Shown here: in pieces, positions 20,508-62,702 of the stretch
Position numbering within the stretch: position 1 is the first letter of the stretch
Layout of the letters: each line of letters begins with the position of its first letter
Source: Candidatus Hydrogenedentota bacterium
GTDB lineage: Bacteria > Hydrogenedentota > Hydrogenedentia > Hydrogenedentales > GCA-2746185
NCBI GenBank assembly: GCA_046583315.1
Contig: JAYGCN010000052.1
Span: 32,001 to 96,000, forward strand
Length of the DNA: 64,000 bases
Direction: 5' to 3'
The notes under the pieces: model-generated
The model's database searches: none
What the model was told of the DNA's origin: nothing
What the model saw: the letters and a program-made list of their open reading frames with translations, nothing else
Translations under genes and position numbers: made by a program

Positions 20508-20984
20508 ATGTCCAAGAAATCGAAAAAGGATGACGATTCCGAACAGTTAATGTTCGACGCTCCGGATCGTCTGTTGCTCGACTCGCTGATTCTCACGCAC
20601 GACGCTGTAGTGACCGCGTTTCAAGAGTTGTTGCGTGGTTACGATATTTCCTATACCCAGTTCTGCGTACTATCGGTGTTGGACGAGGTGCGCGATGAGG
20701 GGATGCGCACGCAACGACTGGGCGCTCGCTTGCTGACGCGTGTACCGGACATCACGCGTCTCGTGGATCGTCTGGTGAAGGCCGGATTCGTTGAGCGGAA
20801 ACGATCGCACGAGGATAAGCGCGTTGTGTTTGTGGCGATTACACAAACGGGTTCGGAACTACTTAACGAAATCAAAGAACCCGCCAAAGAGCTACAGTCC
20901 GGACTCTTCACCCACCTCTCCCAAAACAAGCAGGCCCAGCTCAACCAACTACTCCACGAACTCCGCGACGGCACGCAGCAGTAA
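20508..20984 (+). CDS. MarR family transcriptional regulator
   Basis: ISYTQFCVL, PDITRLVDRLVKAGFVER, EDKRVVFVAITQTG. Confidence 0.93.
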   Translation: MSKKSKKDDDSEQLMFDAPDRLLLDSLILTHDAVVTAFQELLRGYDISYTQFCVLSVLDEVRDEGMRTQRLGARLLTRVPDITRLVDRLVKAGFVERKRSHEDKRVVFVAITQTGSELLNEIKEPAKELQSGLFTHLSQNKQAQLNQLLHELRDGTQQ

Positions 20985-21260
20985 ACGCGAAGGGCAAGGG
21001 TCTCTCACCGCGGAGAGTCTCTCATCTGGTACCTACAGCAATCACGAGTGGTGGCTTTGAATTGTTCGACCGCCTTCTGCGTGATTTTTATTTTTATCGT
21101 TTACCCCGGATTCGTTCGAGGCTATTATTGTTTGACGCATTCCGGGTCGACTGGCAAATTTCATGTTAAAAGTCTTTGCTTCTTTTACCCTTTGCGCCTT
21201 TGCGTTGAGGCAATTTGCATTTAGTCCTATCTGCGTGTATCCGTGTTCATCTGCGGCTAA
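20984..21260. repeat. Degenerate repeat-bounded cassette remnant with three related short-tandem-repeat types
   Basis: AACGCGAAGGGCAAGGG (20984-21000) inverted against CCCTTTGCGCCTTTGCGTT (21188-21206); TCACCGCGGAGAG (21005-21017); ATCTGCGTGTATCCGTGTTCATCTGCGGCTAA (21229-21260). Confidence 0.6.
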
Positions 21261-21295
21261 TTGAGTTGTTGTGGTTCTTGCTGATAGTTAAAGGA

Positions 21296-21325
21296 TTGAC
21301 TATTTTGACCACCTTCTGCTATCAT
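21296..21325 (+). promoter_or_regulatory. sigma70 promoter of rib operon
   Basis: TTGACT (21296-21301), 18 bp, extended TG-C-TATCAT (21320-21325), just upstream of the riboswitch. Confidence 0.55.
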
Positions 21326-21342
21326 TACTCCCACTAGATGAA

Positions 21343-21473
21343 TGAATCTTCGGGGCAGGGTGGAAATCCCTACCGGCGGTGACAGCCCGCGAGCTTCGCG
21401 AACCTTGGTTCTCTTTGCTGACATCTGTGAAATTCAGAGGCCGACGGTTATAGTCCGGATGATAGAAGGTTCA
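21343..21473 (+). ncRNA. FMN riboswitch (RFN element)
   Basis: TCTTCGGGGCAGGGTGGAAATCCCTACCGGCGGT...AGCCCGCGAGC...GTGAAATTC...GCCGACGGTTATAGTCCGGATG..AGAAG; P1 TGAATCTTC/GAAGGTTCA; upstream of ribD. Confidence 0.97.
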
Positions 21474-21568
21474 TACCGTGCATGGGCGAGCGTTGCCTGT
21501 CTGGGGTTGTGATCGCTCGTTGTGTTGGCGCAAAAAATTTGCCGGCAAAACGAGAGTTTCGCCGTATG

Positions 21569-21605
21569 TCCCGAAGGTTTGTGCCTAAACCAGCGGGATT
21601 TTTTT
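21569..21605 (+). terminator. Riboswitch expression-platform terminator
   Basis: TCCCGAAGGTTT-GTGCCT-AAACCAGCGGGA followed by T7, directly before ATG 21606. Confidence 0.65.
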
Positions 21606-22685
21606 ATGCCTACAGAACGCGATTATATGGAACGGGCACTGGCCCTGGCGGCGGTGGCGCGTGGGCGCACGAGTCCGAATCCGATGGTGGGCTGCGTGGT
21701 GGTATCGCATGGCGAGATCATCGGCGAAGGCTATCATGAGAAAGCGGGCGAGCCTCACGCGGAAGTGATGGCTCTGCGCGATTGCGGGGATGTTTCCAAT
21801 GCGACCGTGTATGTGACGCTGGAGCCGTGTTGCCATGAAGGGCGTACGCCACCGTGCGTCGATCTCCTTAAAGAACGTAAACCCCAGCGCGTTGTGGTTG
21901 CCATGGAAGATCCGAACCCGAAGGTGGCCGGACGAGGCATCGAAGCTTTGCAGGAAATCGGCGTGGATGTGTCCGTCGGCCTACTTGAAGAACGAGCGCG
22001 CAAACTCAATGAAGTGTACGTGAAACACGTGACGACGGGCATGCCTTTTGTGATCGCGAAATGCGGCATGTCTCTGGATGGAAAAATTGCCACGCGCACG
22101 GGCGATTCAAAATGGGTCACGGGCGAAGAATCGCGCACGATGGTGCATCAGATTCGCAATCAGGTGGACGCGATTCTAGTGGGCAGTCGCACAGTGATGC
22201 TGGACGACCCAAGCCTGACGACGCGCCTGCCTCAAGAGCGGACCTTCGATCCCATTCGTGTCATCCTTGATTCCAGCGAATATCTCGGCGATGATCGCAA
22301 AGTATTTTCCGTCGAAAGCACATCACCCACGTGGATCGCTGTTGCGGATGAGCGAAAGGTGGTCGGTGCCGATGAAATTATCAAAATACCCAGAGGTCCG
22401 GGCGGTCTGGATATGGAAACGTTGATGCTTGAACTGGCGCGACGCGACGTAACGTCCGTCTTGATAGAAGGCGGCGGCACGACGCATGCCTCGGCATTCG
22501 AAGCGGGCATCGTGGACAAGGTGATGTTCTTTGTCGCTCCCAAAATTATCGGTGGACGCGAGGCGGTGTCCGCAGTGGACGGCGTAGGCAGCGAAACGAT
22601 GTCCGATGCCGTGCCGCTCGAGCAGATGACGGCGACGCCGGTGGGAAATGACATTCTGATACAAGCCTACGTGAGCAAGGGATAG
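21606..22685 (+). CDS. ribD: Bifunctional riboflavin biosynthesis deaminase/reductase
   Basis: SPNPMVG, HAE, TLEPCCHEGRTPPC, SLDGKIA, IEGGG. Start taken as ATG 21606. Confidence 0.97.
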   Translation: MPTERDYMERALALAAVARGRTSPNPMVGCVVVSHGEIIGEGYHEKAGEPHAEVMALRDCGDVSNATVYVTLEPCCHEGRTPPCVDLLKERKPQRVVVAMEDPNPKVAGRGIEALQEIGVDVSVGLLEERARKLNEVYVKHVTTGMPFVIAKCGMSLDGKIATRTGDSKWVTGEESRTMVHQIRNQVDAILVGSRTVMLDDPSLTTRLPQERTFDPIRVILDSSEYLGDDRKVFSVESTSPTWIAVADERKVVGADEIIKIPRGPGGLDMETLMLELARRDVTSVLIEGGGTTHASAFEAGIVDKVMFFVAPKIIGGREAVSAVDGVGSETMSDAVPLEQMTATPVGNDILIQAYVSKG

Positions 22686-22687
22686 TC

Positions 22688-23320
22688 ATGTTTACAGGAA
22701 TCATAGAAGAAGTCGGAGCGATAGCAAAACGCGGCGGCGCGGAATTGACCATCATGGCGAATACCGTGTTGGAAGACGTCTCACTCGGAGACAGTATCGC
22801 CATTGATGGCGCGTGCATGACGGTGGTGAGTTTTAGCGACGATTCGTTTGTGGTCCAGGTGTCGCCGGAATCCTTCGACAAAACAACGCTGGGCAATTTG
22901 AAAGCCGGAGACGCCGTAAACCTTGAACGCGCTATGGCCCTCGGTGATCGATTCGGGGGACACCTCGTTCAGGGACACGTCGACGGTGTGGGCCGTGTGG
23001 AAAGCGTGACGAAGCAGGGCGAATTCAGTCTCTGGAAATTCTGGGCACCGCCGGAAGTCGCGCCGTATCTGATTCCGAAGGGATCGGTCACGATTGACGG
23101 GATCAGCTTGACGGTAGTTGACCCGACGGGCGAAATCTTTGGCGTGGCGGTCATCCCGACGACGTTGCAGGAAACGAAACTACAATCCAAGCAGGCTGGC
23201 GATACAGTGAACATGGAAGCCGACTCGTTTGGAAAACATATCTATCACTATTTGATGCAAGGTGCAGGTCAATCTGCCGGTATTACCCGGGAATATTTGA
23301 ACAAGCACGGATTCGCGTAA
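22688..23320 (+). CDS. ribE: Riboflavin synthase alpha chain
   Basis: MFTGIIEE start, [30 protein letters not shown] (called ribC in E. coli nomenclature). Confidence 0.97.
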
Positions 23321-23353
23321 ATGGAAGCCAGCAGGACTGGCGAGGAGGCATAC

Positions 23354-24586
23354 ATGCCTGAACGAATACCGCAAATTTTGGAAGACCTCGCGGAAGGCAA
23401 GATGATTATTCTTGTGGATGACGAGGATCGTGAAAACGAAGGCGATCTGGTCATCGCTGCGGACAAGGTCACGCCGGAAGCCATCAATTTTATGGCGACA
23501 CACGGGCGTGGATTGATCTGCCTGGCGATGACTCCGGAGCGTATCGAGGAACTCGATCTGCCGCCAATGACGCCGGACAATACAAGTCCATTTGAGACGG
23601 CGTTTCACGTGTCGATTGAAGCGAAAACCGGTGTGACGACGGGAATCAGTGCCGCCGACCGTGCGCGCACCATCCAAGTCGCAGTCAATCCCAATTCCAC
23701 GCCTGCCGATCTCGTTCGTCCCGGTCATGTATTCCCCCTGCGGGCCCGTGAAGGCGGTGTACTTGTGCGTACAGGCCAGACTGAGGGATCCGTCGATCTC
23801 GCTCGCATGGCCGGATGCGCTCCCGCTGGAGTCATCTGTGAAATCATGAGTGAAGACGGTACCATGGCGCGCATGCCGGAATTAAAAGAGTTTGCCGCGA
23901 AACATGACATCAATATTTGCTCTGTGGAGTCGATCATTCAATATCGGCGTATGGCGGAGCAGATTGTCGAGCGCGCAGCCGAAACCGTGTTGCCCACCGA
24001 CTACGGCGATTTCAAGCTGGTCGTATACGAAACCAATGTGGACGAAAAGAATCACCTGGCACTCGTGAAAGGTGATGTCAAAGGGAAAGACAACGTGATG
24101 GTACGGGTGCACTCTGAATGCCTCACCGGCGACGTATTTCATTCGATGCGCTGTGACTGCGGGAGCCAGCTGCACGAAGCGATGCGGATGATCGCGGAGG
24201 AAGGTTCTGGGGTGCTCGTATACATGCGCCAGGAAGGTCGCGGCATCGGGCTCGTCAACAAAATCAAAGCCTACGTGTTGCAGGATCAAGGCATGGACAC
24301 CGAAGAGGCGAACGTGCACCTCGGTTTCGACCCCGATCCTCGCGAGTACGGCCTGGGTGCACAGATTCTGAAAGACCTCGGAATCACGACGATGCGTTTA
24401 ATCACCAACAATCCGGTAAAACGTAAAGGCTTGCAGGGCTACGGGCTTGAGATCACGGATCGGGTTCCTATTGAAATTCCGGCGAATCCTCATAATCACA
24501 AGTATTTGAAGACGAAACAGGAAAAATTTGGGCATCATTTATCTGAATTTGGCGCGGGCGATATTGGTGCCTCAGTAGAAGATTAA
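23354..24586 (+). CDS. ribBA: Bifunctional DHBP synthase / GTP cyclohydrolase II
   Basis: [52 protein letters not shown] before ATG 23354. Confidence 0.97.
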
Positions 24587-24605
24587 TAGGGTAGGAGAAT
24601 TTTTA

Positions 24606-25070
24606 ATGCCAAAAGTTATTGAAGGAAATCTGAACGCGAAGGGCAAACGTTTTGCCATTGTCGTCACGCGATTCAACGAATTTATTACGGCAAAACTGCT
24701 GGACGGCGCGCTGGATGCCATCAAGCGTCATGGCGGTGATGCGGACGGTACTACGGTCGTCTGGGTTCCCGGCGCCGTGGAGATTCCGGTTGTGGCGCAC
24801 AAACTCGCGAAGTCTGATAAGTATGACGTCGTGATCGCGCTGGGTTGCGTGATTCGCGGGGCCACGGCTCACTTTGAGTACGTATCCGGCGAAGCAGCCA
24901 AGGGCATTGGACAGATCGCGTTGCAGACGGGCGTGCCTGTCATGTTCGGCGTGCTGACTACCGAAACGATTGAACAAGCCATTGAACGCGCTGGTACAAA
25001 AGCTGGCAACAAAGGTTTTGAAGTGGCCGTGGGCGCTATCGAGATGGCGAACCTGATGGAGAAATTGTAA
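24606..25070 (+). CDS. ribH: 6,7-dimethyl-8-ribityllumazine synthase
   Basis: [39 protein letters not shown]. Confidence 0.97.
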
Positions 25071-25071
25071 C

Positions 25072-25500
25072 TTGAGCGGTAGTCCACAACAACGAAGAAA
25101 AGCCCGGCGTCGCGCGCTGGAATTTTTGTTCAGCATCGAATTCACGCAATACGAATGGGAAGCCGCGCTTGAGGCATTCTGGGAAACCTTCGACACCAAA
25201 CAGGTCGTGCGTGAATACGCGAAAACCCTGATTAAGGGAATCTCGAATCACACGGAAGACATTGATGCCCACATCGACAGCGCGCTCACCAACTGGTCAC
25301 CCGATCGCGTCGGTCATGTCGAGCGCAACATCCTTCGCGTGGCCGTATTCGAAATCGCGTATACCGATGACGTTCCCCAAAAAGTCGCCATCAACGAAGC
25401 CATCGAAATCGCAAAGGCCTACGGCTCCGACGAGTCCGCGGGTTTCGTGAACGCCGTACTCGACAAATTGAAGAGCACCGTCTTCGCGGATATCGAATAG
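25072..25500 (+). CDS. nusB: Transcription antitermination factor NusB
   Basis: RRKARRRALE, VAINEAIEIAKAYG..FVNAVLD; follows ribH; TTG start. Confidence 0.95.
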   Translation: MSGSPQQRRKARRRALEFLFSIEFTQYEWEAALEAFWETFDTKQVVREYAKTLIKGISNHTEDIDAHIDSALTNWSPDRVGHVERNILRVAVFEIAYTDDVPQKVAINEAIEIAKAYGSDESAGFVNAVLDKLKSTVFADIE

Positions 25501-25507
25501 GTTTCCC

Positions 25508-26332
25508 ATGTCAGGACGTTACGTCGATCTCCACATGCACACGACCTTTTCTGACGGGGCCGACATCCCTTCAGTCGTCGTTGAGCGTGCCAGCAGCCTG
25601 GGCTTCAGTGCCATCGCGATTACCGATCACGATACCCTCACCGGATTGCCGGATGCACGGGTAGCCGCCGACGACGCGGGAATTGAGCTTCTGCCCGGGG
25701 TAGAAGTGAGTTCGCGATACGGCAAGATGGAAGTGCACATCCTTGGCCTCGGCGTGGACCCGACCGATGCCGAACTCACCGAGTCGCTCGCCGTGATGGC
25801 CAAAGAACGTGCGCACCGCGCCGAAGCGATCGTCGAGAAACTGAATGCCCTTGATGTTCCCGTCGATTATGAATCAATCCGCACACGCGTGGGCAAAGGC
25901 GTCATCGGGCGCATGCATATCGCGCAAGATATCGTGTCCCTCGGACATGCCGATACGATCCAGGGCGCCTTCGATAAATACATCAAAGCTGGACGCCCAG
26001 CCTACGTACCGAAAAAGGCGATGACCTGCGAAGATGCCGTCGAATCCATCCACAAAGCAGGAGGACTCGCCTTCGTCGCGCATCCCTGCATCGGAAAAAC
26101 ACGCTCGATCCTAGACCAGTTACTGCGACTCCCCTTCGACGGCATCGAAGTCTTCCACTCCCGCCACACACCAGGACACATCGCCGACCTGAAGGCACTC
26201 GCAGAAGATCGCGGCCTGTTAATCAGCGGAGGCTCCGATTGCCACGGCTCCATAAAAGGCGACTCGCCACTCATGGGGAAAATTCGACTCGCGTGGGAAC
26301 ACTACGAGGCAATCCAGGGACGTCTGACTTAA
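25508..26332 (+). CDS. PHP-domain metal-dependent phosphoesterase (TrpH/YciV-like)
   Basis: DLHMHTTFSDG, ITDHD, GVEVS, AHP, GGSDCHG. Confidence 0.92.
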   Translation: MSGRYVDLHMHTTFSDGADIPSVVVERASSLGFSAIAITDHDTLTGLPDARVAADDAGIELLPGVEVSSRYGKMEVHILGLGVDPTDAELTESLAVMAKERAHRAEAIVEKLNALDVPVDYESIRTRVGKGVIGRMHIAQDIVSLGHADTIQGAFDKYIKAGRPAYVPKKAMTCEDAVESIHKAGGLAFVAHPCIGKTRSILDQLLRLPFDGIEVFHSRHTPGHIADLKALAEDRGLLISGGSDCHGSIKGDSPLMGKIRLAWEHYEAIQGRLT

Positions 26333-26333
26333 C

Positions 26334-26878
26334 GAACCATTTGCACCGCGGAGGACTTCTACTCCAATAGGTCATCATCCAGGTACAGCGCACACTTGTT
26401 TAATGCTTCTTCGACCTCGGGACACTTTGCGCAATCGATGGTCAGCAATACGTAGTCCACGAAGCTTAAGTCATCAAAGGTTGCACAGTTGACGAAGTAG
26501 AACGCGACATCTTTTGGCTACTCAACTTTATGCCAAGTGGTCATTACGAGTGGGTAATTCTCGTGAAGATCGCCGTTCTTGTCGATGTTGCTTCCAATAT
26601 TTTTCTCGTCCGTCATATCATGCCAAAGTTCACAATTCGAGCCGCCGCATACGACCGAGCGACACCCCTTTCGTAAGATCTCGCCGACAATGTAGTCAAT
26701 TTGCTCGACAGAAAAGTTGCTGTCACAATCCTAGATCATGCACGCGAACGGATTGCCGACATCGAGCAGAGCAATGTCATCGGGATGAGAAACGTATTGG
26801 TGCCAATAGCGCCGTCCCTCATTTTCTACAATAATTTTCATATTTAATTCTCCGCGCCTCCGCGGTGAAATGCGGTTC
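26334..26878. mobile_element. Inverted-repeat-bounded gene cassette (cassette 1)
   Basis: Left GAACCATTTGCACCGCGGAGG (26334-26354); right TTCTCCGCGCCTCCGCGGTGAAATGCGGTTC (26848-26878). Fills the whole gap between two convergent stop codons. Mobility is inferred. Confidence 0.6.
26359..26841 (-). pseudogene. 160-codon cassette cargo gene with two in-frame TAG stops (DUF7684-like by recollection)
   Basis: Manual translation: MKIIVENEGRRYWH...FACMI*DCD...GCRSVVCGGSNCELWHDMTDE...LVMTTWHKVE*PKDVAFYFVNCATFDD...DDDLLE*. TAG at 26731-26733 and 26518-26520; GGAG SD comes from the repeat. Confidence 0.7.
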
Positions 26879-28239
26879 TACTTCAGCTCGTTAAACTTGT
26901 CTTCGATTAGTTTGCGAATTTCCTTGAGGCGTTCCTTCGTTTCTGCTTCACACCGCATGACGATCATGGGGGAGGTGTTGGATACGCGGAGCAGGCCCCA
27001 GCCGTCGGGGAACTCAATGCGTGCGCCGTCGATCGTGTTGACGTCGTAACCTTCTTTCAGGAAAAACGCCGTTGCTTTCTCCACGATCTTGAATTTCTTT
27101 TTGTCCGTTGTTTCCAGTCGAATTTCGTCCGTAACGAAGGTTTTCGGCAGGGACTCGAGGTGTTTATGGAAGGGTCTGTGGCTGGCTGCGATGATTTCCA
27201 TGAGGCGTGCCGCCGCGTAGATGGCGCAATCGAAGCCGTACCAGCGGTGTTTGAAGAAAATATGGCCGCTCATTTCGCCGCCGATGGCCGCGTTGTTCTT
27301 GACCATACAATCTTTGATGAGCGAGTGGCCCGCTTTATACATGATTGGGTTGCCGCCATTTTTTGCGATATCCTCGTACATCGTGCGCGAACACTTTACT
27401 TCGCCGACCACGGTCGCGCCTTTCACTTCTTTCAAAATCTGCCGCGCAAACAAAAGCAGTAGCATATCGCCTGCGATAAAATTTCCTTTGTCGTCCACCG
27501 CACCGATTCGATCGGCATCGCCATCAAAACCGATGCCCAAGTCAGCCTTCTCTTCCTTGACCGTACTCACGAGCTTCTTGAGGGTCTTCGGTAGCGTGGG
27601 ATCGGGATGATGATTCGGAAAGTTGCCGTCCACCTTGCAATACAGCTCAACCACGTCGCAGCCCATCGCGCGAAACAGATCAACTCCGACTTTTCCACCA
27701 ACGCCGTTACCCGCATCCACTACAACCTTCAGCTTCCGCTTCAGTTTAATGCCCCGAAGAATTTTCTGTTGGTACTTCGGAATAATGTTCATACGCGTAA
27801 TCGTAACCGGTTTTTTGGCGACAGGAAATGCTCCTTTTTGAATGATCGCCTTAATCTTTTGAATTTCTTTACCGTGAATGGTGGATTTGCCCACGCCCAG
27901 TTTCAATCCGTTGTATTCCTTCGGATTGTGCGAGCCCGTAATCATCACTCCGCCGTCCACAGGTAGATGAAACAGGCCGAAATAGGTGACGCCCGTGCTG
28001 ACTTCGCCAATATCGATGACGTTCATGCCCACAGAGGTCAGACCGTCGATGAGCGCGTTGGCGAATCCCTTCGACGTAAGCCGTCCATCCCGTCCGACCA
28101 CCATACAATTGTGTTTTTTCTTGCGGCGCATATAAACGGCAAGGGCTTTTCCGACCAATTCGACGATTTCTTCCGTCAATTCGTCGCCGGCAATGCCGCG
28201 GATGTCGTATTCTCTAAAAATGTTGTCTGGCAACTGCAT
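26878..28239 (-). CDS. Phosphomannomutase/phosphoglucomutase (AlgC-like)
   Basis: FREYDIRG, ITGSHNP, FDGDADR, GEMSGH, RVSNTSP. Confidence 0.96.
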   Translation of the reverse strand: MQLPDNIFREYDIRGIAGDELTEEIVELVGKALAVYMRRKKKHNCMVVGRDGRLTSKGFANALIDGLTSVGMNVIDIGEVSTGVTYFGLFHLPVDGGVMITGSHNPKEYNGLKLGVGKSTIHGKEIQKIKAIIQKGAFPVAKKPVTITRMNIIPKYQQKILRGIKLKRKLKVVVDAGNGVGGKVGVDLFRAMGCDVVELYCKVDGNFPNHHPDPTLPKTLKKLVSTVKEEKADLGIGFDGDADRIGAVDDKGNFIAGDMLLLLFARQILKEVKGATVVGEVKCSRTMYEDIAKNGGNPIMYKAGHSLIKDCMVKNNAAIGGEMSGHIFFKHRWYGFDCAIYAAARLMEIIAASHRPFHKHLESLPKTFVTDEIRLETTDKKKFKIVEKATAFFLKEGYDVNTIDGARIEFPDGWGLLRVSNTSPMIVMRCEAETKERLKEIRKLIEDKFNELK

Positions 28240-28419
28240 GGTGTTCTCCCCAAAAGGCTAATCAGGTGCGTATTGTAATGATTCAGAGTTGGAAAACCAA
28301 GAGATGGAAGGGCCGAGTGGGTCGTCAAGCCAGAGAACTGCGCATGAACAGACTTGACAGTGTACATGGAACCCGTCCATCAGTATACTCGAATCGTTCA
28401 TGAATGAAGGAAGCATACC

Positions 28420-29148
28420 ATGCCCATTACCGATACCGTGTGGAAATCAGAAGAAGTCGCATCCAAATATCTGCAAGGCGTGCGCGGCGCGATTCCGGGA
28501 GCCTTGTTGCAGCTCGAGGTCATGATGCGTTTGCTGGGCACGGGTGAACACACGATAGATAGCTTCCTTGATCTCGGATGCGGTGACGGTATTCTGGGAC
28601 AAACAATCCTCGCTGAGCATCCCGAGGCGCAGGGTGTGTTCGTCGATTTTTCCGAACCCATGATCGATGCGGCCCTCAAACGATTGGGAACTGACTCGAA
28701 GCATGCGTTTCATGCGATCGATTATGGGCAAGCAGGTTGGATCGATTCCCTTTCAGCCCCTTTCGACTGTATCGTGTCCGGATTTTCGATACATCACCAG
28801 CCGGACGAACGAAAGAAGGAAATCTACCAGGAACTTTTCGATGCGCTCGCGCCTGGAGGCTGGTTTATCAATATGGAACACGTTTTGTCCGCTACGAAAA
28901 CAGGTGAGACGGCGTTTCTGCAGCATCTCGTTGACAATATGTTCGCACTGGAGAAAGAATCCGGTGGTACGCGGTCGCGCGCGGAAATTCTTCATGCGAT
29001 GGAAAACAACGAAGACAGCCAAGCGAATATTTTGGCAAGAGTTGATGTGCAATGCGAATGGTTGTCGGCGATCGGTTTTCAGGAAGTCGATTGCTATTTC
29101 AAAATCTATGAGTTGGCCATTTTCGGGGGCGTTAAGCCTACCCAATAG
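28420..29148 (+). CDS. Class I SAM-dependent methyltransferase
   Basis: LDLGCGDG, VDFSEPM, SGFSIHH, LAPGGWF. Confidence 0.92.
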   Translation: MPITDTVWKSEEVASKYLQGVRGAIPGALLQLEVMMRLLGTGEHTIDSFLDLGCGDGILGQTILAEHPEAQGVFVDFSEPMIDAALKRLGTDSKHAFHAIDYGQAGWIDSLSAPFDCIVSGFSIHHQPDERKKEIYQELFDALAPGGWFINMEHVLSATKTGETAFLQHLVDNMFALEKESGGTRSRAEILHAMENNEDSQANILARVDVQCEWLSAIGFQEVDCYFKIYELAIFGGVKPTQ

Positions 29149-29163
29149 GGGAACGAATTCAGT

Positions 29164-29613
29164 ATGCGCGCGGTTATTCAACGGGTCAGTGAGTCATCGG
29201 TCACGGTCGATGGGTCTGTTATCGGTGAGATCGGCGTGGGATTCATGGTGCTGTTGGGCGTGTCCGATGACGATACCGAGCAGGACGCGGATGCCCTTGT
29301 GCAAAAAATCGTCGGCTTGCGCGTGTTCAATGACGACGACGGAAAGTTCAATCTGTCATTGATGGATGTGGGCGGGAGGGTGTTGCTCATTTCCCAGTTC
29401 ACATTGATGGGGGATTGCCGGAAGGGGCGCCGTCCATCATTTATCAGAGCCGCTCGCCCTGAACACGCGATTCCGTTGTATGAATCGGTCATTGCGGGTC
29501 TAAAACAGCGCGGCGTAACGGTTGCCAGCGGTGAATTCGGTGCGCACATGGACGTGCATCTCATCAATGATGGACCCGTGACCCTGCTCGTGGACAGTCG
29601 AAAGGAATTCTGA
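29164..29613 (+). CDS. dtd: D-aminoacyl-tRNA deacylase
   Basis: [35 protein letters not shown]. Confidence 0.97.
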
Positions 29614-29622
29614 CCAAAGGCG

Positions 29623-30597
29623 ATGAGCACCCCTGATGAGAATAGTCGCTTGCGAATCGTGGTCGCCGGGTCAGGCCGTCTCGGCATGGCCGTGCTGGAG
29701 CCACTACTCGATTCTGGATATGAGGTGGTTGCCGTCGTGCAGAACGGTCGTAAAGTGCCGCGGTGGGAGCGAAAGTTACTCGGACTTCAGGCGCGCATCA
29801 CACCGCGTATGCCTTCACCGTTGTGTGAAGCAGTGCGGCAGCGAATTCCAATTTATTGGTTGGAACATCTTGATGCTACGGAGATTAAATCGCTATGCGC
29901 GATGAAACCCGACCTGTTGATTACTTGTGGATTCAGCATCATTCTGCCGGAATCTGTTCTGTCTATCCCGCGCATCGGCTGTATCAATGTGCATACGGCC
30001 CTGTTGCCGAAACATCGAGGTCCAAATCCCTGCGCGTGGGTCGTGCACGACGGGGACGGAAAATCCGGCGTGACGATTCATGTTACGGAAACCGGAATCG
30101 ACACGGGGGCGGTGTTGGCACAGGAATCCTTTGATCTGTCGCCTACTGACACGAGCATGGATGTGTATCTTGCTTCGTGCGCCGTGACCGCTGGCATGAT
30201 TTCGGAAACGATTGCAGATATCGAAGCGAATGGTTTTGCGAACGCGCGTGTGCAGGACGAATCTGAGGCGACTTATGACAAGCGCTTCAATGATGAGCAG
30301 TCGCGCGTGGATTGGACGCAGTCCGCCGTGGCAATTGAACGATTGATACGCGCGGCGCATGCCTACGCTCCGGCCTGGTTCCAATTCGGCAAAACGCGCG
30401 TGCGTTTGGTGCAGGCTGAGGCGAAAATGGGTGGCCGTGATGTTGCACCAGGTGTGATTGTGGCCGTCGACCCCGAGCTCGTCGTCGGTACGGGCGACGG
30501 GACACTGACCCTGTACTCAACCTATACCGATCAACGCGGCGGCACACGATGGCCGGGCGCGTTCACGAAGCTGAAACCGGGCATGCGTCTGGAGTAA
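29623..30597 (+). CDS. Formyltransferase, Fmt-like paralog
   Basis: CINVHTALLPKHRGPNP, GVTIH, GIDTG and Fmt-type C-terminal domain; N-terminus diverges from canonical Fmt. Confidence 0.85.
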   Translation: MSTPDENSRLRIVVAGSGRLGMAVLEPLLDSGYEVVAVVQNGRKVPRWERKLLGLQARITPRMPSPLCEAVRQRIPIYWLEHLDATEIKSLCAMKPDLLITCGFSIILPESVLSIPRIGCINVHTALLPKHRGPNPCAWVVHDGDGKSGVTIHVTETGIDTGAVLAQESFDLSPTDTSMDVYLASCAVTAGMISETIADIEANGFANARVQDESEATYDKRFNDEQSRVDWTQSAVAIERLIRAAHAYAPAWFQFGKTRVRLVQAEAKMGGRDVAPGVIVAVDPELVVGTGDGTLTLYSTYTDQRGGTRWPGAFTKLKPGMRLE

Positions 30598-30622
30598 GAT
30601 ACGCGCAGGGGGAAATACGCCG

Positions 30623-31252
30623 ATGGATGTCGAAATTCGCGAGTACCGTGACGAGGATGAGCAGAAATGGATGCGCGTCCACGCAGAAATCATGACGATA
30701 TCCCATTCCTGGAACTATTGCATACAGGAACGCCCCCCCTATGATGGCCACGAATCCACGCGACTCGTCGCGCTCGTGGACGGGAAGATTATTGGGTTGA
30801 CCGATACGCTTTACGATAACGAACCCGGCGAAATTTGTTTCAACAAAGAAACGCGCGGGGGTTATGTCACAGAGTTCGGTCGACTACCCGGATTCGCGGC
30901 GAAGGGACTCGGCATTCAGCTCATGCAAGCGACGATGGATCATGCGCACGCCAAGGGGATCGACCGCCTCGAATACTGGTCGCAGGATCGCAACGCACAA
31001 CGCTACTACATGAAACTCGGGCTGCCCGAAATCTCGCGCCATTATCGTTTCCGCATGCAAGCCCCGCAAGAGGTCGGCGACCACCTCCTCCAAGACGGCA
31101 TCGGAGTCGAATACATCTACGGCGTGTGCCAGCCCGAAGATTGGCCAGCCGTGAAAAAGAAATATGAAATCAAAATGGATCACCCACTAGAACCCCACCT
31201 GTGTATCGGCTACGCGATCGATGATTTCGAGAAACCGTTCCCGAAGGGCTAA
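30623..31252 (+). CDS. GNAT family N-acetyltransferase
   Basis: IREYRDEDE start, LPGFAAKGLGIQLM acetyl-CoA motif, NAQRYYMKLG. Confidence 0.85.
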   Translation: MDVEIREYRDEDEQKWMRVHAEIMTISHSWNYCIQERPPYDGHESTRLVALVDGKIIGLTDTLYDNEPGEICFNKETRGGYVTEFGRLPGFAAKGLGIQLMQATMDHAHAKGIDRLEYWSQDRNAQRYYMKLGLPEISRHYRFRMQAPQEVGDHLLQDGIGVEYIYGVCQPEDWPAVKKKYEIKMDHPLEPHLCIGYAIDDFEKPFPKG

Positions 31253-31264
31253 GGGCGAAGAGCA

Positions 31265-31868
31265 TTCACCGCGGAGGCGCGGAGAACGCGGAGGAAATTT
31301 GTGATAGATATCGAGTCTATACGAAATTTGCTGGCAAACGAACTCCGTAGCTGCGAATTCGGATATATATATCGCCCTAAGAGGGCGTTTTTGGATTTTT
31401 TCGAATAAATCGATGCAACGTACCCTAGATTTTGTCGATTTGCTTCGGAAACCTCCATCGAACTTTTACATTTGTCATGACAACCCGGATCTGGATATTT
31501 TGAAAGAAGCGATTGATAATAAACAAATTTACCATTTAGGGGGAGAGGTTTATCGAATTTCCCACTCATTTGACACAAATTTATTCTACCGCTGTTTCTT
31601 TTTGTACTCAGATTCTTGGGCGTATTGGATTACTTCGGACTGTACTTTCGAAGGAAGCTTCGTTCGCTATGAAATGGAAATGGATGGGGATTATAGAAGA
31701 GGAACTAGCCCGTCGAGTGAATTTAGGCGAAATTGATGTTGCAGTTTGCGCGTACGGAGATGGTGTAGAAATGCACATAATAGTTAACAACAAGGCGGAG
31801 TAGCCTTATTTATTGTTGATGCGCCGACAGGTAATCCCTCTCCGCGCCCTCCGCGTCTCCGCGGTGAA
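31265..31868. mobile_element. Inverted-repeat-bounded AT-rich cassette (cassette 2)
   Basis: TTCACCGCGGAGGCGCGGAGAACGCGGAG (31265-31293) and its inverse at 31840-31868 match at 26/29 nt. Interior is AT-rich (19/60 GC in 31501-31560). Mobility is inferred. Confidence 0.7.
31301..31803 (+). pseudogene. Probably decayed cargo gene(s) of cassette 2
   Basis: GGAGG SD from the repeat, then GTG 31301 (MIDIESIRNLL...FFE, TAA 31406); further ORFs 31413-31736 and 31570-31803 lie in other frames. No family recognised. Confidence 0.45.
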
Positions 31869-31873
31869 GAAAG

Positions 31874-31902
31874 CCCTTCTTCGTGTTCTTCGTGGTGAAA
31901 AA
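31874..31902. repeat. CACGAAG-type short tandem repeat abutting cassette 2
   Basis: CCCTTCTTCGTGTTCTTCGTGGTGAAAAA; the reverse complement TTTTTCACCACGAAGAACACGAAG has the same architecture as TTCACCGCGGAG-N-CGCGGAG. Confidence 0.7.
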
Positions 31903-31903
31903 G

Positions 31904-61932: not shown

Positions 61933-62088
61933 GAGGTTCCCCTTGTAGATTCAGCAGACAAAATTCCTGCCATATTTGCAAGTACTATAAGAAATTCCGG
62001 TAGCTTTGTAAAGCATTTTCGAGCTACTCATTCGAAATTTCGCTGTTTTTCTGGTGGCGTGACCCCGAAAGGTCACGCCAAAATAAGC

Positions 62089-62453
62089 GAGCAGGCCTGT
62101 AAGCCGAGTTCTGTCTAAGATGCAAGCATCTCGAGACGATCATTCATCTAGAATCTGCGTTGCCACAGATTTCGAGCTTCCTACCCGGGAGCCGCGCGGA
62201 CCACGCCATTGCTCCCCTATTTGGAATTGCTCCGAGTGGGGTTTAGCAGGCCGACTTGTCACCAAGCCACCGGTGCGCTCTTACCGCACCATTTCAACCT
62301 TACCGGCCCAATCCATTAAGGAGAGGACGTAGGCGGTATATTTTCTGTTCCACTTTCCGTCGGGTCACCCCGCCTTGACGTTATCAAGCACTCTGTCCTT
62401 CGGAGTTCGGACTTTCCTCGATATCAGGGATATCGCGACCGTCCAGCCTACTC
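62089..62453 (-). ncRNA. rnpB: RNase P RNA, bacterial type A
   Basis: Minus strand: GAGTAGGCTGGACGGTCGCG...GAGGAAAGTCCGAACTCC...GGAAAGTGGAACAGAAA..ACCGCC...GGTAAGAGCGCACC...AAACCCCACTCGGAGCAA...AGATGAATGATCG...ACAGAACTCGGCTTAC; hairpin 62055-62080 downstream. Confidence 0.97.
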
Positions 62454-62702
62454 AGGTAGAGTATACCACGAATTGTGACTTCGAGGCACGAGGGGGTATT
62501 CGGAAAACGCGCATAATGTAAAAACACATAGGATCTATTCATATCTCCTTGTATTGTAAGGGGATATTGTGATATTCTCAATTCGTCGTAAAACCGTTTT
62601 TATCAATTTTCGGTGTTGCGTCCGGGCAAAACAGGATTTGTTGCTTACGTAAAACTGTTCTGCGGGGGCAAGGCTCCGAAGTACTGACAAGGTGGAACCT
62701 AT

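Follow-up and report, generated by a model that had tools for sequence, protein, structure and literature searches.

Heptamer-repeat arms typical of GxxExxY (PDDEXK_3) genes bound intergenic inserts in a Candidatus Hydrogenedentota genome

We analyzed a 64,000-nucleotide stretch of a Candidatus Hydrogenedentota genome (assembly GCA_046583315.1, contig JAYGCN010000052.1, positions 32,001–96,000 of the forward strand), hereafter the window, which contains three intergenic inserts bounded by short tandem repeats that we refer to as arms. The arms are built of 7-nt units such as CGCGGAG and are typical of genes of the GxxExxY (PDDEXK_3) family. The source genome measures 4.65 Mb in 355 contigs, with 53% GC and a completeness of 96.7%, and near-identical sequence is present in marine metagenomes. 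The inserts consist of the following features, in window coordinates:

20985–21016, plus strand: left end of insert 1, with an AAGGGC-type linker, a T/C-rich lead and a single CGCGGAG (21009–21015), beginning at the marR stop.
21017–21189, no strand: interior of insert 1, a spacer without a gene, GC 0.43.
21190–21260, minus strand: right end of insert 1, two stacked inward arrays, CGCAAAG twice (21190–21204) and CGCAGAT/CACGGAT/CGCAGAT (21229–21255).
26333–26353, plus strand: left arm of insert 2, a lead and a single CGCGGAG (26347–26353), behind the stop of a PHP-domain gene and 5 nt from the cargo stop.
26359–26841, minus strand: cargo of insert 2, a complete DUF7684 gene of 160 codons, GC 0.47, interrupted by two in-frame TAG codons (37 and 108).
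26850–26877, minus strand: right arm of insert 2, an AACCGC linker, a TTTCAC lead and two CGCGGAG units, beginning at the phosphomannomutase stop.
31253–31293, plus strand: left arm of insert 3, an AAGGGC-type linker, a TTCAC lead and three CGCGGAG units, at the GNAT stop.
31301–31803, plus strand: cargo of insert 3, a complete orphan gene of ~165 codons, GC 0.40, in three frame pieces (two frameshifts).
31840–31903, minus strand: right arm of insert 3, a composite of two CACGAAG units (31879–31894), a linker and three CGCGGAG units (31840–31863), beginning at the DUF1501 stop.

An initial annotation of this DNA had read the inserts as cassettes of an integron-like system, and the repeat units and both composite strings that it named were all recovered in place. 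Six copies of the anchored word CACCRCRRAG are present in the window, all of them inside the three inserts, against 1.13 ± 1.07 copies in 100 shuffles, none of which contained six. The window arms belong to the AG class of arm words. Stop-side arms begin 10–25 nt from host stop codons, in line with the annotated start of the inserts near host stops; this does not extend to the right end of insert 1, which faces not a stop codon but a promoter region and a flavin mononucleotide (FMN) riboswitch (21342–21474, plus strand) preceding the rib operon. The ends had likewise been described as tandem 7-mers in inverted orientation, a description that fails for inserts 1 and 2 on the left, where the arm is a single unit, and for insert 1 as a pair, whose ends belong to different heptamer classes (CGCGGAG on the left, CGCAAAG and CGCAGAT/CACGGAT on the right). 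The paired arms of inserts 2 and 3 base-pair in the folded strand, and both inserts are located between convergent host genes. No flanking direct repeat indicative of target-site duplication was seen by eye at the insert ends, which are mixed in word and length, and the empty alleles have diverged too far to reveal the target. At 31250–31252, the arm/linker overlaps the last codons of the host gene and contributes its stop codon; the same overlap provides the stop at C236:20458, C260:901 and C95:2606 of the source genome.

Inserts 2 and 3 each enclose one gene. Cargo 2 matches DUF7684 (Pfam PF24733, E = 4.7e-17) and aligns near end to end with protein P0006 at 54% identity. Because this alignment runs from Met1 to Met1, the ATG at 26841, 8 nt past the arm GGAG, is the true start. 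The three frame pieces of cargo 3 all match P0005, in order; only full phmmer retrieved this match, as Pfam, the Atlas and the word-indexed search all returned nothing for cargo 3. The GTG start of cargo 3 (31301) is confirmed by homology and lies 6–7 nt past the arm GGAG(G), with the stop 36 nt from the right arm. These homology-supported starts and the tight fit of the arms bear out the annotated view that single whole genes are bracketed with cassette-like precision. GGAG(G) does stand 6–8 nt ahead of a cargo start in two cases, in inserts 2 and 3 and not in inserts 1 and 2 as annotated. The cargos had also been called unrelated and decaying, which describes cargo 2 and the orphan cargo 3, both broken, but not insert 1 (20984–21260), which has no open reading frame (ORF). 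Assembly errors could be among the breaks; the contigs examined from public sequencing runs do not cover these positions. The genes adjoining the cargos have a GC content of 0.51–0.58, compared with 0.47 for cargo 2 and 0.40 for cargo 3.

The association of such repeats with GxxExxY genes, which the initial annotation had mentioned for other phyla, is borne out by a survey of 80 family genes, drawn from a 31-genome search, 40 further regions and, for a few, other scans. At least three arm units are carried by 58 of the 80, with inward arms in 49 and outward arms in nine, and the remaining 22 have fewer than three units. The family is present in 30 of the 31 genomes searched, the source genome included. 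CGCGGAG arms, as in the window, enclose GxxExxY genes at three loci (L192, L229 and L265). The geometry of the native cassettes, with a start ~10 nt and a stop ~12 nt from the arm (medians), is similar to that of inserts 2 and 3. The predicted fold of the GxxExxY protein (predicted local distance difference test, pLDDT, 97) has its best match in Cas4 SSO0001 (E = 9.6e-4) and weaker ones in lambda exonuclease and Hjc; D62, E72 and K74 are conserved, and the GxxExxY proteins are putative nucleases by fold. PMC3424549 lists PF13366 as PD-(D/E)XK, of unknown function, with multiple transfers.

The arm words follow the GxxExxY protein tree. The division between AG and AT/AA-type words requires one change (minimum 14 and mean 20 in 1000 shuffles), and the seven arm word types require 12 changes (shuffle minimum 28), on a quick-method tree of 117 columns with many open forks and 59 labelled rows, two of them labelled by hand, and 21 unlabelled rows left out of the count. 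CRCRGAG arms cover eight family labels, and a single host genus holds six arm types. This match between arm and clade provides a predicted substrate word for each GxxExxY protein. One GxxExxY cassette, with CACAGAT/CGCAGAT arms (C202:21675–22165 of the source genome, L372), has a sugar-isomerase-like gene on one side and a dehydrogenase on the other; its orthologues are L373–L377, L379 and L381, and it occupies an operon in six genomes of the family. At the same site, the copy of genome G001 is armless and strongly diverged, and genome G007 has a different small gene in the sugar-dehydrogenase operon, also armless. A more complex arrangement is seen at L335 (G006:C25:1958–3254), where four identical arms alternate in orientation. 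The first inward pair encloses a 377-nt segment (GC 0.39) with a broken frame that may resemble the N-terminus of GIY-YIG/DUF4357 proteins; next comes an outward pair around GxxExxY, and last an inward pair whose 400-nt interior has no gene.

The source genome does contain a repeat-flanked gene of the anticipated kind, a single GxxExxY gene (TIGR04256) within inverted CACAGAT arrays, but this gene is frameshifted and of the AT class, and no intact GxxExxY gene, including one of the cognate AG class, was found in the 96.7%-complete genome. The window arms being of the AG class, their cassettes are likely orphaned and decaying. The reading that we prefer, although we hold it to be evenly poised between right and wrong, is that inserts 2 and 3 represent stranded passenger cassettes of a GxxExxY element, in which an unrelated whole gene has taken the nuclease slot. 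Its support comes from the kind of arm, the match of arm word to protein clade, the predicted nuclease fold, the spacing of cargo starts and stops, the disrupted state of both cargos and, as set out below, the vacant or otherwise occupied equivalents of two further sites, the small share of inward pairs between convergent genes, the excess of low-GC ORFs in array gaps and the recurrence of arm blocks between loci.

The genome scan proposed with the initial annotation revealed that the arms are widely dispersed. CRCRRAG/CRCRGAT heptamers recur at 8–10 nt spacing far above chance in a motif-free count (CGCAGAG, 10 versus 0.03). Tandem modules number 77, versus 17–21 in three block shuffles, and the linker GAAACYGAAAAC is present in 23 copies, versus 0–4 in shuffles. 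By gene calls from our own codon-score method, which is not a validated annotator, 69 of the 77 modules are extragenic, that is, outside the gene cores that make up 73% of the genome. Multi-module arm blocks of 50–110 bp recur between loci at 75–90% identity. The modules occupy 46 gaps, seven with inward pairs and 39 one-sided. When a single anchored unit is accepted as an arm (background 3.6% per strand), 10 of 35 internal array gaps have inward pairs, of which five enclose another gene (inserts 2 and 3, C174, C346 and C101), one encloses GxxExxY and four are gene-less; three of the 10 lie between convergent genes. At the co-directional sites, menB–menA and C346, the arm past the cargo stop points back toward the cargo, as in GxxExxY cassettes. 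Cargos elsewhere in the genome include DUF3885 inside arms at menB–menA, and SMI1/KNR4, DUF998 and AbiJ_NTD4 beside one-sided arms. Low-GC ORFs are found in seven of 35 array gaps compared with 73 of 1821 other gaps (p = 5e-4), which is in part an effect of gap length.

Insertion only at operon ends, as annotated, does not hold as a general rule for the outermost arms, 23 of which lie behind a stop codon and 24 behind a start codon; 17 of the 23 stop-side arms begin no more than 30 nt from it. Among solo arms, 17 of 25 are directed away from whichever gene is nearer, a non-significant excess (p = 0.11; 25 of the 39 one-sided loci). Other hairpin repeats co-occupy the arm gaps, and array gaps provide sparse counts for other repeat families. 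Further dispersed repeats of 45–90 bp, in many copies at 80–100% identity, were observed at C172:19053–19099, C57:536–586, C73:31800–31892 and on many other contigs. One arm-bearing region is present in two 95%-identical copies at contig ends (C207:88435–88806 and C333:7051–7444), likely strain variants. Elsewhere in the window, 62084–62454 on the minus strand encodes RNase P class A RNA.

Orthologous sites that are empty or hold other contents, for which the annotation had called, were found at menB–menA and glycosyltransferase–Spx/ArsC, both being loci of the genome other than those of the window. We compared the 30 best menB loci, the source genome included. In the source genome, the menB–menA gap spans 1018 nt and holds CGCGGAG arms with a frameshifted DUF3885 gene; it measures 25–85 nt in 14 relatives, contains an arm hairpin without a gene in G008, and contains an armless low-GC ORF of 509 nt in G001, the only same-genus genome. 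Of the other loci, two have other repeats or a one-sided arm and one has a gap of 162 nt, and menA was not found in place at eight of the 30. In another genus, GxxExxY with CACGGAT/GACGGAT arms occupies the site in G010 and G011; it also lies past menB in G013, and these copies are 69–73% identical and so likely derive from one inherited insertion. The glycosyltransferase–Spx/ArsC gap measures 549 nt here, including arms and a degenerate membrane-protein frame, and 41 nt in G001. Alternative contents at syntenic gaps are seen at menB–menA and two other sites.

The window sites gave no such comparison. Among relatives, a PHP gene adjoins none of 22 phosphomannomutase loci and DUF1501 none of 19 GNAT loci, and syntenic loci were found for neither marR (0 of 4) nor PHP (0 of 4); the C101 site lacks synteny in the five loci examined. 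A metagenome scan with GNAT returned one locus, whose match is limited to residues 1–78 (69%). We also compared contigs from four of 24 listed public runs, in which near-identical strains carry insert 1 and the cargo ends. One contig (X3, depth 4.55) skips cargo 3 by running from 31297 through 22 other letters to 31848. It could represent an empty allele or, alternatively, a gene-less hairpin of a different organism; we do not count it as empty because identical gene-less hairpins are common in other organisms and its flank lengths are not shown.

Beyond the source genome, arms are mostly found without genes. A GTDB scan with a three-unit arm returned at least 124 stretches, of which 80 fully fetched loci were analyzed. 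Their 88 arms comprise 43 without an inverted partner, 40 in gene-less pairs, two truncated, two enclosing GxxExxY and one enclosing another whole gene. At L160 (contig JBQCEI010000911.1), CGCGGAG arms surround 1249 nt with a bile acid:sodium symporter-like gene of host GC. In seven members of the family, the arm pattern occurs 5–32 times each, and 62 inspected arms include 42 solo arms and 10 in short hairpins. In G005 and G009 (for example L137, L144, L150 and L155), arms form outward-facing gene-less doublets ~33 nt apart, and at L359 (G010:C111) two convergent paralogues share arm and hairpin repeat ends, so that a host-like gene is enclosed by a long inverted repeat. In viral contigs, 20 loci (L437–L456) hold 21 copies of the CGCGGAG arm, of which 18 are solo and two are gene-less hairpins, with an inverted pair 1178 nt apart at L439; no GxxExxY gene was found near the arms in these 20 loci.

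This distribution also suits a different explanation, in which the arms are dispersed selfish repeats similar to repetitive extragenic palindromic (REP) sequences, genes enter tolerant gaps by illegitimate or flank-homology recombination, the latter known from minimal mobile elements, arms come to rest near stop and start codons on their own account, and bracketing is a by-product. Such repeats would be expected mostly solo or gene-less, as they are in the source genome, the relatives (52 of 62), GTDB and the viral contigs. Also consistent with this are the 17 of 23 stop-side arms within 30 nt of a stop, the armless foreign genes at equivalent sites, the hairpin repeats that share arm gaps and the placement of both window cassettes between convergent genes. 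It fits less well the whole genes trimmed to within 5–36 nt of the arms on either side, as native cassettes are, and the back-pointing arm past the cargo stop at the co-directional menB–menA and C346 sites. The arm pattern has no match anywhere in G001, so that arms may have been lost in its lineage and its armless cargo may once have had them. Overall, dispersed repeats with incidental bracketing account for the solo majority and the convergent sites, and we regard this explanation, the main alternative, as possible, though short of probable.

Several of the observations weigh against inserts 2 and 3 being passenger cassettes. Most arm-bearing gaps are one-sided (39 of 46), and 73 of 80 gaps with a low-GC ORF have no tandem array. 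Of the 88 GTDB arms, only one encloses another whole gene and two enclose GxxExxY. We observed no cargo with arms in more than one place, and none of 11 DUF3885/DUF7684 family members from relatives, though distant from the cargos, has arms. Foreign genes occupy equivalent sites without arms in G001 (menB–menA) and G007 (sugar-dehydrogenase operon). Both window cassettes have convergent neighbours, and two arms placed independently against the stops of such genes would point inward regardless. In the tree, related rows share labels and the arms are physically linked to the gene, which points to co-travel and not to recognition. Finally, the GxxExxY cassette kept in one operon of six genomes is an old fixture, so the element is not obviously active. 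With most arms solo or gene-less and foreign genes at armless sites, a dedicated capture system does not hold as a general rule.

The relation of arms to start codons and operons bears on an RNA-level explanation, by which paired arms close a stem around the gene in an operon transcript that is processed or that sets translation or termination, similar to ORF-bearing 23S rRNA intervening sequences, the nuclease-fold gene being a domesticated passenger. The pairing of the arms of inserts 2 and 3 in the folded strand would agree with this, as would the retention of the cassette within one operon in six family genomes and the overlap of the last arm unit with the start codon in several AT-class native cassettes (distance −2). 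Moreover, PMC4679880 proposes heptamer repeats at ribosome-binding positions in Beggiatoaceae as translational signals. However, inserts 2 and 3 sit between convergent genes, outside any single transcript, nine of the 58 armed GxxExxY genes have outward arms, and arms are mostly unpaired. In addition, only three of 23 GGAG-ending arrays precede a start with a frame of at least 30 codons, versus 19% at random gap positions; the repeat does not, then, supply the Shine-Dalgarno sequence as a rule, as had been annotated, and such arrays before an ORF are no commoner than chance. We consider the RNA-level explanation improbable.

Each cargo is a whole single gene, unrelated to the others and lacking a promoter, of a kind common in mobile pools, as would be expected if a site-specific recombinase encoded elsewhere integrated circular cassettes at attachment sites. 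The initial annotation had noted no visible recombinase or attC site, and our searches agree. No integron integrase (TIGR02249) scored over the cut-off in the genome, where only two weak tyrosine-recombinase loci were found; there were no Y1/RAYT transposase matches (PF01797) in the genome and, by a crude pattern, no attC-like motifs in the 35 array-bearing gaps. At 96.7% completeness, the absence of a recombinase is not proven. Also absent from the genome search were the four-helix-bundle gene TIGR02436 and a stand-alone GIY-YIG nuclease, the one GIY-YIG match being inside a 412-aa frame. Inverted arms, mixed in word type and variable in length, are further unlike fixed att sites. We regard an integron-like recombinase as very improbable.

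For passenger cassettes of a GxxExxY element, we envisage the following sequence. Each nuclease clade would bind and cut its own arm word. Through repair or recombination there, further arms, and hairpins lacking a gene, would be copied into gaps that run from a stop codon to the following ribosome-binding site. Now and then, a foreign gene would be left between two arms, in the nuclease slot, and an inward GGAG-ending arm could then act as the Shine-Dalgarno sequence of the enclosed gene. We infer the direction of these events as well as the cutting and the movement. A broader version, in which GxxExxY proteins are sequence-specific nucleases with one 7-base word per clade that drive a recombinase-free, genome-wide capture, the arms taking whole genes, supplying their ribosome-binding site and inserting past host stops, seems to us rather doubtful. 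GxxExxY/PDDEXK_3 is a widespread family without an assigned function. If its arms also move passengers, they would constitute a route of single-gene acquisition without integrase or transposase that is invisible to current mobile-element annotation, and the family could be a source of small sequence-specific nucleases.

We found no published description of the arms or cargo in the open-licence PMC and bioRxiv literature. The window arms are those found around GxxExxY family genes (TIGR04256/PF13366), but the table row on the family mentions neither a repeat association nor cargo (PMC3424549). Other intergenic heptamer repeats appear in PMC4679880, whose abstract and summary section give no mechanism.

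Among known systems, several share features with the element described here. Integron cassettes and clusters of attC sites lacking integron-integrases (CALINs) contain single promoterless unrelated genes trimmed near their start and stop codons. Cargos 2 and 3 are likewise single promoterless genes trimmed in this manner, but there is no IntI, attC-like site or array at one site, and the ends are inverted tandem heptamers. Minimal mobile elements depend on homology of the flanking genes and need no inner arms. Here, in contrast, the arms sit close against the start and stop codons of the cargo and are part of a nuclease cassette of many phyla. For these elements and the Neisseria intergenic mosaic elements (NIME/dRS3), PMC1797815 describes alternative small gene sets at syntenic gaps, as we observe, and proposes that the Neisseria intergenic repeat mosaics promote exchange of adjacent genes.

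The closest parallels are with Ssn–SRM/NTS and REP/REPIN–RAYT. Ssn genes (PMC11893778) are small, encode a single nuclease domain and are flanked by a repeat of their own, with repeats dispersed around other genes and homolog-specific repeat variants, and with a proposed control of horizontal transfer. The two differ in that Ssn has a GIY-YIG fold and a 20–50 nt hairpin motif, versus a predicted PD-(D/E)XK fold and tandem 7-mers here, and in that repeat cleavage has been demonstrated for Ssn (PMC11893778), GxxExxY being a predicted nuclease. REP/REPIN–RAYT systems (PMC3116915) have extragenic inverted doublets as gene-less hairpins, tied to the gene of a cognate enzyme that those repeats also flank; some copies are non-autonomous, and several repeat types combine into mosaics. 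The arms described here differ from them in that the partner is not an HUH/Y1 transposase, singlets outnumber doublets, and some arm pairs enclose whole foreign genes. By analogy, the element, which falls outside integrons, RAYT and Ssn on account of its enzyme, may work in the manner of REP–RAYT or Ssn–SRM.

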